A stretch of 64,000 nt of DNA, from NCBI GenBank assembly GCA_000002445.1, contig AL929603.2, forward strand, positions 320,001-384,000. The letters run 5' to 3'. Made by a program: the position numbers and the translations under genes. Origin of the DNA: Trypanosoma brucei. Taxonomy: Eukaryota. This document shows, piece by piece, positions 1,625 through 4,486 of the stretch. Below the pieces are notes generated by a model. That model saw only the letters and a program-made list of their open reading frames with translations, did no database searches and was not told the DNA's origin. Position 1 is the stretch's first letter; each line of letters opens with the position of its first letter.

Positions 1625-1873
1625 ATGCTTTCGTATACAGTGAAGGAGGAAGTAAAGGATGAAAAGCTCCCCGGAGCTAACAACTTCGCTGACGTCGGAG
1701 GATCATTGGAGGATGAGGAACCCATGACGCTGTACACGTGCGCGAATTGCACGCGCGTTGTAGCATTATGCCCGTCCTCCCAACTCATGTGTACGCATTG
1801 CGTTCATCGTACGGGTTCCTCTACAGTGTTCTACAAGGTTCGCCAGCAACCCACAACATATGACACTATTTGA
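1625..1873 (+). CDS. Small zinc-ribbon protein, RNA polymerase subunit ABC10alpha/Rpb12-like (CxxC...CxxC followed by a basic YK.R tail)
   Basis: The C-terminus reads YTCANCTRVVALCPSSQLMCTHCVHRTGSSTVFYKVRQ, a CxxC-x12-CxxC ribbon. The polyY tract at 1440-1560 lies inside the longer track ORF from 1388, so I start at the internal ATG 1625, giving an 82-aa protein. Confidence 0.4.
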   Translation: MLSYTVKEEVKDEKLPGANNFADVGGSLEDEEPMTLYTCANCTRVVALCPSSQLMCTHCVHRTGSSTVFYKVRQQPTTYDTI

Positions 1874-2219
1874 TAACACAAAGCCATTTAGGAGATGGTG
1901 CCCTTCCGGCTGACGCCTACATTGCCTCGGTTGTGGCGGCCCCCTGTTGTGCGAGTACGGAAGAGGTGACTGAATTGATTCTCTTTCGCGCACTCCTCCG
2001 CGACGAACGCCATCAGTTGCGCACATACACACACACATACACAATTCTCTATGCCAAATTTCTGTCTGTGTGTACTGATTCTTTTGTTGAATATGTCAGT
2101 AAATTTTTACTATTTTGTTTCTTTCTCAGCCACGTTTATGTCCGTGCCCCTTTATTTTATTTATTTTATACTCCATGCATTCCAGCGTTTGCCCTCACAA
2201 TAGTTTCACCGTTGCAACT

Positions 2220-2444
2220 ATGATGAACAGGCCGCCGCCCCAGCAGGCGATGCGGTCAGCAGCAACCAAAGATGTTGTGCCCCAACCCCAGTGCGTCTGC
2301 GCAAGTTGCTTCTCACCGCTTCCGTTACCTCGTCCCGACGCAACAGGAACACCGTTTCAATGCCCCCAATGCCGAATGGCTGGTATAGATATGAAAGTGC
2401 TTTACACCCGTCGTGCGTTCCCAACAGAGCATAGTACAAACTGA
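2220..2444 (+). CDS. Second small zinc-ribbon protein, ABC10alpha/Rpb12-like, sitting in tandem with the 1625-1873 gene
   Basis: 75 aa. The segment QCVCASCFSPLPLPRPDATGTPFQCPQCRMAGIDMKVLYTRRAF shows CxxC-x18-CxxC followed by K..Y.RR. Its N-terminus (VVPQPQ) resembles the Q/P-rich N-terminus of metazoan RPABC4. A polyY tract and AG lie immediately upstream at 2100-2215. Confidence 0.4.
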   Translation: MMNRPPPQQAMRSAATKDVVPQPQCVCASCFSPLPLPRPDATGTPFQCPQCRMAGIDMKVLYTRRAFPTEHSTN

Positions 2445-3196
2445 AGGGCGGGTGTTAAGCCCCATTCTGGGATGTTATTTTTTCTTGTACCACATTTACG
2501 GTAAGGGTGCAAGAGTGGGAGCTGACAGAGGGCAGTGGATTACGGTTCGAGGGAGGGGAAAGTATATGAAAGTTGGGTGTGCTCTCGCTTTTGTAGGCAT
2601 GTATGTTTTACTCATACTGGAAACGTATCCGTCCCCGAGCTATTCTTTTTTGGCTTCCGCATCTTTAGCAACCCGTGTGCTCAAGGAGGGCGATGAGAGG
2701 TGCTCATATCTTCAACAGTTTTACCTTGTGTCCGTGGTGGCTTATCGTGCCAAATTCATTTTCTTGCATTCCTTATCTGGAGCGCTCAGCAGCCCGTCTG
2801 TACGTGATCTGGGCACACTCCTGTTTATTCTTGTGTTATCGTGTGAAGTCAGAGATAGATTGCAAAGCACTACAGCCTGTTAAGCGACAAAACGGGGTGT
2901 GTTACCGGTTTCTTCTTCTTACTACTAAAACATATTTTTCCTTTTTAAAATTTTCAAGTATTAACCGAAAGTCAGTTGGGTGTGGGCCGTTAGGGTGTGC
3001 CTCTGTAAATTTGTTTATAGTTCAGCGGAGGAGGTCTCTCCACGCACAAACCAGTGCGTGTTTAGGAGGTGGTGGTGGGAGGTTGAGGGATTTTTGTGTG
3101 TTGCCACTACGCAAACACAAGCGGCCAAATAAGGTGTAAATTCGGTTGCCGTCCTCGTTAGCGTACGTCTTGTGTTGACATTGAGGTCGCAGCACC

Positions 3197-4486
3197 ATGT
3201 TCGTGCGGTCTTTCTGTTTCCTGCGTAAATATGGCAGCAAGTCAAAGACACCGGACCTCAAGACAAGTTTCACCAAAACCACTAACTTCCGAAAGGCGGA
3301 GAAAATTAGTATCACCACAACAGATGGGGAAATAGTAAAGGGCCGCGGTAAGATACGGCGGCGCACCCACAGCGCACTAAAAGAAGCCATTGGGGCCATG
3401 GAGCACCCCGCGATTTGGCTCTGGTACCCGTGGCGTATGAATCCTGAACCCCCGACACCGCACATGCCCCAACGCCGTGCCCTGAAAAACGTTCATGGCG
3501 CGGTATTTAACGATCTAACACCCGTACAGAAGAAACGGCAGGAGCAGATGTTGTATGGCGTTAACATACCGGAGACGCGACAAATGAAGTTTGAGGAGCA
3601 ACATCCGCTGCTTGCTGGAGCGCTGCGGAAGCTTGAGGGTCAGCCGAAGGGTTTCCCGTTTTGGTACAGAAAGTATCCGACACGTCGTCACGCCTACGAG
3701 TACCGTTTTAGCATTCCTGTGGAGATGTTAGACGGGTACAACGATGACGTAAAAAAGGCTCTCTCAAAAGGTATGATGTCGATTCAGGAAAAACAGTTCG
3801 CTCAAGAAGCCATGTACATGGAGCGTTACGCCGAACACGACTTCGATACCACAAGCCCGGCGGTGCTAGCGGTTAAACGCGCGCTTAAGTGCCGTGTGCT
3901 ACGAAACCACCTTCTGACCAATCCGCACAATAACATTATCAAGACAGTGTTGGCGAACACGGAGCGGAAACTTAACCACGCCCTGCGCAGACTGCGTAAG
4001 GTAGATTTTAAGAAGTACTGGGAAATCATTCGTGACCACGATGTGCAGGATATACTTCAGCCTCCCAACCTCGTCACATACCGTCAGGGATCGTACTGGA
4101 AATATGACTGGAATGCAGGCTTGGCAATATCAACAAATCTTGCGGATGTGATGGATCCTCGTGGTTTAAATGGTTGCGTTGAAACGGGCCGATCCCGCTC
4201 GGAGGTCGCGCGTGATCTCGGCCTCTCATATACTCGGCCTCTGCATGAGAATGAGAAGAAACAGTTGTCTCACCAAGCCGTCTACTATGAGCGGCTGGCT
4301 AAATTTAAAATGGAGCAACCCGAAGCGGCACGGGCGATGGAGCGTGAGCGGTTCGTGCGGAAATTCTCCGGCATGTTTGTGAAGATGGACATTCGTTCGG
4401 GAGCACCAGACTTCCCAAGCACATATCGTAGGTTACTTGGAACAAAGGTGGTGCGATGGGCGTCTAAGCGACACGGCCCCAATTAG
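3197..4486 (+). CDS. Conserved hypothetical protein, basic, possibly organellar
   Basis: Clean 429-aa ORF starting at ATG 3197 with coding-like composition. No family recognised from the sequence. Confidence 0.45.
   Translation: MFVRSFCFLRKYGSKSKTPDLKTSFTKTTNFRKAEKISITTTDGEIVKGRGKIRRRTHSALKEAIGAMEHPAIWLWYPWRMNPEPPTPHMPQRRALKNVHGAVFNDLTPVQKKRQEQMLYGVNIPETRQMKFEEQHPLLAGALRKLEGQPKGFPFWYRKYPTRRHAYEYRFSIPVEMLDGYNDDVKKALSKGMMSIQEKQFAQEAMYMERYAEHDFDTTSPAVLAVKRALKCRVLRNHLLTNPHNNIIKTVLANTERKLNHALRRLRKVDFKKYWEIIRDHDVQDILQPPNLVTYRQGSYWKYDWNAGLAISTNLADVMDPRGLNGCVETGRSRSEVARDLGLSYTRPLHENEKKQLSHQAVYYERLAKFKMEQPEAARAMERERFVRKFSGMFVKMDIRSGAPDFPSTYRRLLGTKVVRWASKRHGPN

Follow-up and report, generated by a model that had tools for sequence, protein, structure and literature searches.

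In nuclear RNA polymerases, the small zinc-ribbon subunit RPB12 is located between the second-largest subunit and the Rpb3/AC40-like one. Here we report that the RPB12 gene of Trypanosoma brucei, an open reading frame (ORF) of 82 amino acids on chromosome 1 (ORF1), is directly followed by a second short gene for a zinc-ribbon protein of 74 amino acids (ORF2), and that the best explanation of ORF2 is probably a diverged Rpb12-like paralogue derived from a tandem duplication. Both genes lie on the + strand of a 64,000-nucleotide stretch of DNA, referred to as the window, and positions given below count from its first nucleotide unless chromosome coordinates are indicated. To the explanation that we favour as a whole, a tandem of RPB12 and a diverged, polymerase-linked paralogue, we assign a probability of roughly 60%. 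The identity of ORF1 was already known, and ORF2 has been catalogued as a conserved small ORF without a function. What is new is the link between ORF2 and RPB12; in the literature we found no description of an RPB12 paralogue in kinetoplastids, nor of the ORF2 gene as a polymerase subunit.

RPB12 and its probable relationship to ORF2

ORF1 is RPB12 (ABC10alpha), and nothing in this identity is new. Its 82-amino-acid sequence is exactly that of GenBank entry CAJ44913.1, 'DNA-directed RNA polymerase subunit RPB12 [T. brucei brucei]', and its orthologues, which are 80-82 amino acids long, are likewise named RPB12. The zinc ligands are C39/C42 and C56/C59 (codons 1739-1750 and 1790-1801), and the layout, as measured by script, consists of YT-CANC, a 13-residue linker, CTHC and a 23-residue tail VHRTGSSTVFYKVRQQPTTYDTI, which agrees with the Rpb12 pattern (YTCANC, 13 residues, CTHC, VHR ... 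VFYKVR ... YDTI). Kinetoplastid RPB12 proteins as a group score poorly against the corresponding Pfam model PF03604 (Zn_ribbon_RPAB4): ORF1 reached 20.4 bits (E=4e-4), slightly short of the gathering score of 24, the protein of T. melophagium 24.1 bits (at the cut-off), and those of Leishmania and Bodo 10.8 and 11.7 bits, respectively. Against the PDB, all six best matches of the single ORF1 sequence were Rpb12, and with a profile of kinetoplastid RPB12 the top seven were Rpb12 chains, the best being yeast Rpb12 (E=0.0012, 22.1 bits). Purified T. brucei RNA polymerase II (Pol II) is stated to have yielded all twelve subunits, RPB1-RPB12 (Srivastava et al. 2018), the last of which would presumably be ORF1.

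In ORF2, the zinc ligands are C27/C30 and C48/C51 (codons 2298-2309 and 2361-2372), and the script-measured layout is CV-CASC, a 17-residue linker, CPQC and a 23-residue tail RMAGIDMKVLYTRRAFPTEHSTN. Throughout the orthologues the four cysteines are invariant and the linker is 17 residues long; a further conserved cysteine, Cys25, stands in place of the aromatic residue of Rpb12, the trypanosomatid proteins reading CVC while Bodo keeps the tyrosine (YYCASC). A first-pass annotation, made from the DNA sequence alone, had described both ORFs as a CxxC-(12-18 aa)-CxxC ribbon followed by a basic Y-K/R tail; this description holds, with linkers of 13 (ORF1) and 17 (ORF2) residues and the tail motifs VFYKVR and VLYTRR. 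Its reading of the two genes as a tandem Rpb12-like pair is secure for ORF1 as the canonical copy, given the identity to CAJ44913.1 and the Pfam and PDB matches, and moderately supported for ORF2 as the diverged one. Similarly, comparison with Rpb12 profiles and spacing, which it had proposed as a check, gave a clear result for ORF1, with scores against the family and the 13-residue spacing of Rpb12, and a mixed one for ORF2, which scores at the level of the family profile only, with no Pfam match and with a spacing of 17.

Homology of ORF2 to RPB12 appears fairly likely, on evidence which is moderate and not decisive. A profile built from 11 ORF2 orthologues was searched against 177,635 distinct PDB sequences, and the four best matches were yeast Rpb12 (best E=0.0057, 19.6 bits, compared with E=0.0012 and 22.1 bits for the kinetoplastid RPB12 profile on the same target), followed by eS27 as the next family at E=0.45. 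The Bodo ORF2 orthologue alone found human POLR2K as its best PDB match (E=0.19). In profile-profile alignments with hhalign, the ORF2 family gave a probability of 50.5% (P=1.6e-4) against kinetoplastid RPB12, in an alignment that begins at the first knuckle, reaches the C-terminus and contains one 4-residue gap, 47.7% (P=1.9e-4) against Rpb12 of yeast, animals, plants and archaea, and 80.7% (P=1.3e-5) against all Rpb12 combined; the scores thus climbed with added sequence diversity. Since the cysteines alone suffice to align one zinc ribbon with another, the columns of the ORF2 alignment were permuted 400 times with the four cysteine columns held fixed. The observed score was reached by 1 of the 400 shuffles against kinetoplastid RPB12, again by 1 of 400 against all Rpb12, and by 12 of 400 against non-kinetoplastid Rpb12.

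The part of the protein behind the ribbon points in the same direction. After the last cysteine, Rpb12 of yeast, human and Arabidopsis has 19 residues, and all five kinetoplastid RPB12 proteins compared have 23, owing to a kinetoplastid-specific 5-residue insertion before VFYK; the ORF2 orthologues have 23 as well (24 in Bodo). As judged from the alignments, the 23-residue tail is a derived length character common to ORF2 and kinetoplastid RPB12. The motifs within it correspond, with V-L-Y-T-R-R and P-T-E-H-S-T-N in ORF2 and V-F-Y-K-V-R and P-T-T-Y-D-T-I in RPB12, and the Bodo ORF2 protein retains Y-x-CASC and VFY-x-KR of the Rpb12 type.

Both word-indexed and exhaustive profile searches recovered ORF2 orthologues from Kinetoplastea only, besides one EukProt model. 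They are found in Trypanosoma species, Leishmania, Novymonas, Leptomonas, Porcisia, Phytomonas and the free-living Bodo saltans, and those copies that carry a name are all 'hypothetical' or 'unnamed'. In T. cruzi, L. orientalis, Phytomonas EM1 and Bodo saltans, the gene directly preceding the ORF2 orthologue is RPB12, which together with T. brucei makes five lineages with this order. As Bodo has the pair, the tandem arrangement is older than the split between Bodo and the trypanosomatids.

The EukProt model, 'gene12925-8782_t' (P0070, 243 amino acids), has an ORF2-like ribbon (CTCATC, 17 residues, CQQC), and its tail, ending in ...HTRAVPYDPNKT, looks intermediate between ORF2 and RPB12. Three other candidates from the search of the representative library, P0066, P0067 and P0069, are long repetitive proteins and were treated as artefacts of repeats or composition. 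In L. mexicana, the intergenic stretch downstream of RPB12 (LmxM.20.0490) has served as a negative control for sequence conservation (Fiebig et al. 2015); the same interval in L. orientalis contains the ORF2 orthologue, and that of L. mexicana may do so too.

Expression and constraint of ORF2

ORF2 is almost certainly a real, expressed gene. Lack of expression or of ribosome footprints had been named by the first-pass annotation as an outcome that would speak against its proposal; instead, ORF2 resides on a mapped transcript with ribosome footprints. Ericson et al. 2014 (PMC3942054) catalogued it as Tb1.NT.22_2, at positions 46-312 of the 733-nucleotide 'novel transcript' Tb1.NT.22, and noted conservation in T. 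vivax, T. congolense and Leishmania, giving no function. Vasquez et al. 2014 (PMC3973304) placed Tb1.NT.22 at Tb927_01_v4:322130-322863 and reported RNA levels of 56.9 in bloodstream and 72.7 in procyclic forms and ribosome footprints of 15.6 and 34.1, respectively (all in reads per million per kb), with footprints covering about 37% of the transcript, which is near the 31-36% of its length taken up by the ORF. The same study assigned to a downstream gene, Tb927.1.1200, the range 322186-324486 with a 1010-nucleotide 5' untranslated region (5'UTR) that starts at window position 2186 and encloses all of ORF2. Thus, translation of ORF2 may have been counted as translation of the 5'UTR, or of an upstream ORF (uORF), of Tb927.1.1200.

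Both ORFs lie on the + strand at the positions originally proposed, and each has kinetoplastid orthologues and a proportion of nonsynonymous differences (pN) far below that of synonymous ones (pS). Between T. brucei and T. cruzi, pN and pS are 0.178 and 0.90 for ORF2 and 0.188 and 0.826 for ORF1; with synonymous differences saturated, purifying selection acts on ORF2 as strongly as on RPB12. The NCBI copy of the TREU927 gene set does not contain ORF2, whose exact sequence is recorded only for T. b. equiperdum, as a chromosome-1 protein; proteomic searches against such sets could therefore probably not detect it. The tryptic peptides to be expected of it would be MAGIDMK, AFPTEHSTN, VLYTR and the long cysteine-rich DVVPQPQCVCASCFSPLPLPRPDATGTPFQCPQCR. 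The TrypTag supplement held no identifiers from the ORF1/ORF2 region, and no ORF2 peptide string occurred in the supplement of the L. mexicana transcriptome. We also considered Tb1.NT.21, for which two peptides occur in a mitochondrial proteome, as a transcript of RPB12, and rejected it; its sequence is that of an unrelated gene about 25 kb upstream.

The first-pass annotation had further credited each ORF with its own polypyrimidine tract and AG acceptor. For ORF2 this is confirmed by published 5' ends at 2130 and 2186, each located just after an AG and behind a pyrimidine-rich tract; for ORF1 the signals are read from the sequence, and we found no splice site mapped to it. Translation from an in-frame ATG at 2175 would extend ORF2 to 89 amino acids by 15 non-conserved residues. 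The orthologues begin at the position of ATG 2220/2223, and the 74-amino-acid protein is therefore the conserved form. From the 5' end at 2186, the first AUG is that of ORF2 itself at 2220. The longer isoform of Tb1.NT.22, starting at 2130, carries a 21-codon uORF together with ATG 2175, neither of which is present in the shorter one, and it might be speculated that the choice of splice site could alter the efficiency of ORF2 translation. The T. rangeli orthologue is annotated with 104 amino acids, including a hydrophobic N-terminal extension of 30 residues that is absent from all other orthologues; its start codon was probably mis-called.

Gene order around the pair

The window was placed at Tb927_01_v4:320001-384000 of T. 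brucei chromosome 1 because of the published coordinates of Tb1.NT.22 and of Tb927.1.1200 (end 324486). Every ORF of at least 250 amino acids in the window is carried by the + strand, which fits a single polycistronic unit. Locally, the gene for a PPR protein is followed by ORF1, ORF2 and the gene for a 429-amino-acid protein with an S15 domain, and the features of this region are as follows.

13-1248, + strand: gene for the PPR protein, upstream of ORF1.
About 1441-1532, + strand: pyrimidine-rich tract upstream of ORF1, the presumed trans-splicing signal, read from the sequence; candidate AG acceptors at 1588-1622.
1625-1873, + strand: ORF1, canonical RPB12 (ABC10alpha), 82 amino acids; ATG at 1625, stop at 1871-1873; identical to CAJ44913.1.
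2130-2863, + strand: transcript Tb1.NT.22, 733 nucleotides, carrying ORF2; published mapping, 5' end just after the AG at 2128-2129.
2138-2203, + strand: uORF of 21 codons, in the longer 5' isoform only; from the sequence and the published 5' end.
2186, + strand: second mapped 5' end (spliced-leader addition site), just after the AG at 2184-2185 (Vasquez et al. 2014).
2220-2444, + strand: ORF2, 74 amino acids, candidate RPB12 paralogue; ATG at 2220, stop at 2442-2444; from conservation, transcript, footprints and profile similarity.
3197-4486, + strand: Tb927.1.1200, 429 amino acids, with a sub-threshold ribosomal S15 domain (Pfam E=7.6e-6).

In the TREU927 and T. b. gambiense annotations, RPB12 appears as a 'hypothetical protein, conserved' of 161 amino acids starting at 1388 (1388-1873). 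This unnamed TREU927 model is over-extended, since its reading crosses the pyrimidine tract at 1441-1532, the orthologues have 80-82 amino acids and an RPB12 of 82 amino acids has been deposited; the correct form starts at 1625.

Tb927.1.1200 is annotated as 'hypothetical protein, conserved' with the Gene Ontology term 'mitochondrial part', and its synteny is kept from Bodo to Trypanosoma. Based on the S15 domain and this synteny, it may be a mitochondrial ribosomal protein of the S15 type. An extra gene lies between ORF2 and the S15-domain gene in T. cruzi (425 amino acids, L002:5550-6827), L. orientalis (551 amino acids, L001:6061-7716) and Phytomonas (494 amino acids, L004:4468-5952); the T. 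cruzi and Leishmania proteins, used as tblastn queries, had no match in the T. brucei window. The T. brucei gap between the two genes (2445-3196) holds, in TREU927, only Tb927.1.1180, a 'hypothetical protein, unlikely' (2693-3196). Scans of the window for tRNAs and Rfam families gave no matches, and a scan for bacterial promoters and terminators, which is irrelevant to a eukaryote, gave chance-level results.

Alternative explanations and a possible place in RNA polymerase I

A number of results weigh against ORF2 being a polymerase-linked RPB12 paralogue. PF03604 had no match at E<=10 in any of the nine ORF2 family members scanned, nor in the Bodo and Phytomonas orthologues, and Pfam scans of ORF2 and its relatives gave scattered weak matches to unrelated zinc-finger families only. 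When an Rpb12 hidden Markov model was run on the 1347 stop-to-stop segments of the window, ORF1 came first and ORF2 third (E=0.23), level with a random segment. Pairwise BLASTP of ORF1 against ORF2 was weak: the T. brucei pair gave E=0.046, and the Bodo pair aligned over six residues with E=0.057. Of the PDB profile score, about 5 bits stem from the N-terminal part, whose composition is simple, and a truncated yeast chain reached only E=0.26. The linker of 17 residues differs from the 13 of Rpb12, and C-G-[YH]-R after the second knuckle is missing, C-R-M-[AN]-G being found there instead. AlphaFold2 models were of low confidence and uninformative, and fold searches gave nothing significant. No peptides of Tb1.NT.22_2 occurred in three mass-spectrometry data sets (Ericson et al. 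2014), we found no data of any kind on polymerase association of ORF2, and one review counts RPB12 itself among the subunits of RNA polymerase I (Pol I).

The lack of any PF03604 match in the family, the non-significant single-sequence tests and the different linker without CG[YH]R would all fit a conserved small zinc-ribbon protein unrelated to Rpb12, whose likeness is convergent, whose adjacency to RPB12 is due to chance and which works in another complex. We consider such a protein unlikely, as Rpb12 takes the top four places in a search of the whole PDB, among whose entries are many other zinc ribbons, human Rpb12 is independently the best match of the Bodo orthologue, all but one of 400 shuffles fall short of the similarity outside the cysteines, and the kinetoplastid-specific 23-residue tail recurs in ORF2. 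Moreover, the adjacency has been kept since before the split of Bodo and the trypanosomatids, and no chain of a solved complex matches ORF2 at high identity, the best being CTCF (E=0.022). The loss of CG[YH]R and the longer linker would suit a genuine RPB12 paralogue that no longer belongs to a polymerase, for which Arabidopsis NRPB12-like (At1g53690) provides a model, since it failed to co-immunoprecipitate the second-largest subunit of any polymerase. Like ORF2, it is a second Rpb12-type gene beside a constitutive one, but it is recognisably Rpb12-like by sequence and differentially expressed, whereas ORF2 is far more diverged and has RNA and footprints in both T. brucei stages. This alternative is rated lower still: the constraint on ORF2 equals that on RPB12 (pN 0.18 versus 0.19), the Rpb12-like elements of the tail are kept across the full depth of Kinetoplastea, and three other shared subunits have paralogues in this group which work in Pol I.

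Finally, the 1010-nucleotide 5'UTR assigned to Tb927.1.1200 from 2186 (Vasquez et al. 2014), which encloses ORF2, would allow ORF2 to be a mere uORF of that gene with footprints reflecting regulatory translation. This is very improbable, as the separate 733-nucleotide transcript Tb1.NT.22 ends at 2863, well before Tb927.1.1200, the protein has been conserved over the range from Bodo to Trypanosoma, pN being much lower than pS, and one or two genes separate ORF2 from the S15-domain gene in T. cruzi, Leishmania, Phytomonas and Bodo. ORF2 is also included as Tb1.NT.22_2 among the small ORFs of T. brucei 'novel transcripts' (Kolev 2010; Ericson et al. 2014), a catalogue that differs from the present account in using the 89-amino-acid reading from ATG 2175, with no peptides, no function and no link to RPB12.

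Taken as a diverged RPB12 paralogue, ORF2 compares with known systems as follows. With the RPB12/ABC10alpha/RPABC4 family (PF03604; archaeal Rpo12/RpoP) it shares a small size, an unstructured N-terminal part, two CxxC knuckles and a hydrophobic-aromatic-basic motif after the ribbon, the C-terminal end having the length found in kinetoplastid RPB12; the family differs from it by the 13-residue linker, the tyrosine two residues before the first knuckle (cysteine in ORF2, except in Bodo), CG[YH]R and the Pfam match. A further parallel is offered by RPB5z, RPB6z and RPB10z; in trypanosomatids these are paralogues of shared subunits that, according to reviews, are confined to Pol I. Conditional on the moderate evidence for homology, ORF2 resembles them as a second, more diverged copy beside a canonical shared subunit that is conserved across trypanosomatids. 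Their membership in Pol I has been shown biochemically, whereas ORF2 is known from sequence, transcript and footprints; it stands in tandem with its parent gene and occurs in Bodo saltans as well.

In the explanation that we favour, the locus holds an ancient tandem pair, ORF2 having probably originated as a duplicate of RPB12 in a common ancestor of Bodo and the trypanosomatids. ORF2 would have kept the four zinc-binding cysteines, the hydrophobic-Tyr-basic motif, the Pro-Thr ... Thr ending and the 23-residue tail, while gaining four residues in the ribbon linker (from 13 to 17) and losing C-G-[YH]-R. By homology, its zinc ribbon may bind the Rpb12 site of a nuclear RNA polymerase, and ORF2 would fill the Rpb12 position in only one polymerase class, ORF1 serving in the others. 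For ORF2 as a polymerase subunit of any class, we regard the chances as about even. The likeliest class would be Pol I, by analogy with RPB5z, RPB6z and RPB10z, as in the first-pass annotation's suggestion of a Pol I-specialised copy, and a designation of ORF2 as a Pol I-specific 'RPB12z' is accordingly tentative and rather less likely than not. Reviews disagree on whether RPB12 is an identified subunit of Pol I, since the list of identified subunits in one of them omits it and the other, as mentioned, includes it. Rpb12 tends to escape mass spectrometry owing to its small size, which, together with the absence of ORF2 from the gene set, would explain how such a subunit could have been overlooked.

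The polymerase concerned is of particular interest in trypanosomes, as their Pol I is unusual in making, besides rRNA, the mRNA for the major surface proteins, variant surface glycoprotein (VSG) and procyclin. The list of its subunits is regarded as incomplete to date, and a second RPB12-type protein would be a concrete candidate for a missing small subunit. Should ORF2 prove not to be a polymerase subunit, it would remain a strongly conserved, expressed and unnamed zinc-ribbon protein. If, on the other hand, RPB12z is real, four of the five normally shared subunits (RPB5, RPB6, RPB10 and RPB12) would have polymerase-specific versions in kinetoplastids, and Pol I would have almost no small subunits in common with Pol II. 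As Bodo saltans has the pair, the split of RPB12 would then predate the divergence of Bodo and the trypanosomatids and, hence, both parasitism and antigenic variation, and the kinetoplastids would have split the common polymerase subunits more fully than any other known group of eukaryotes.

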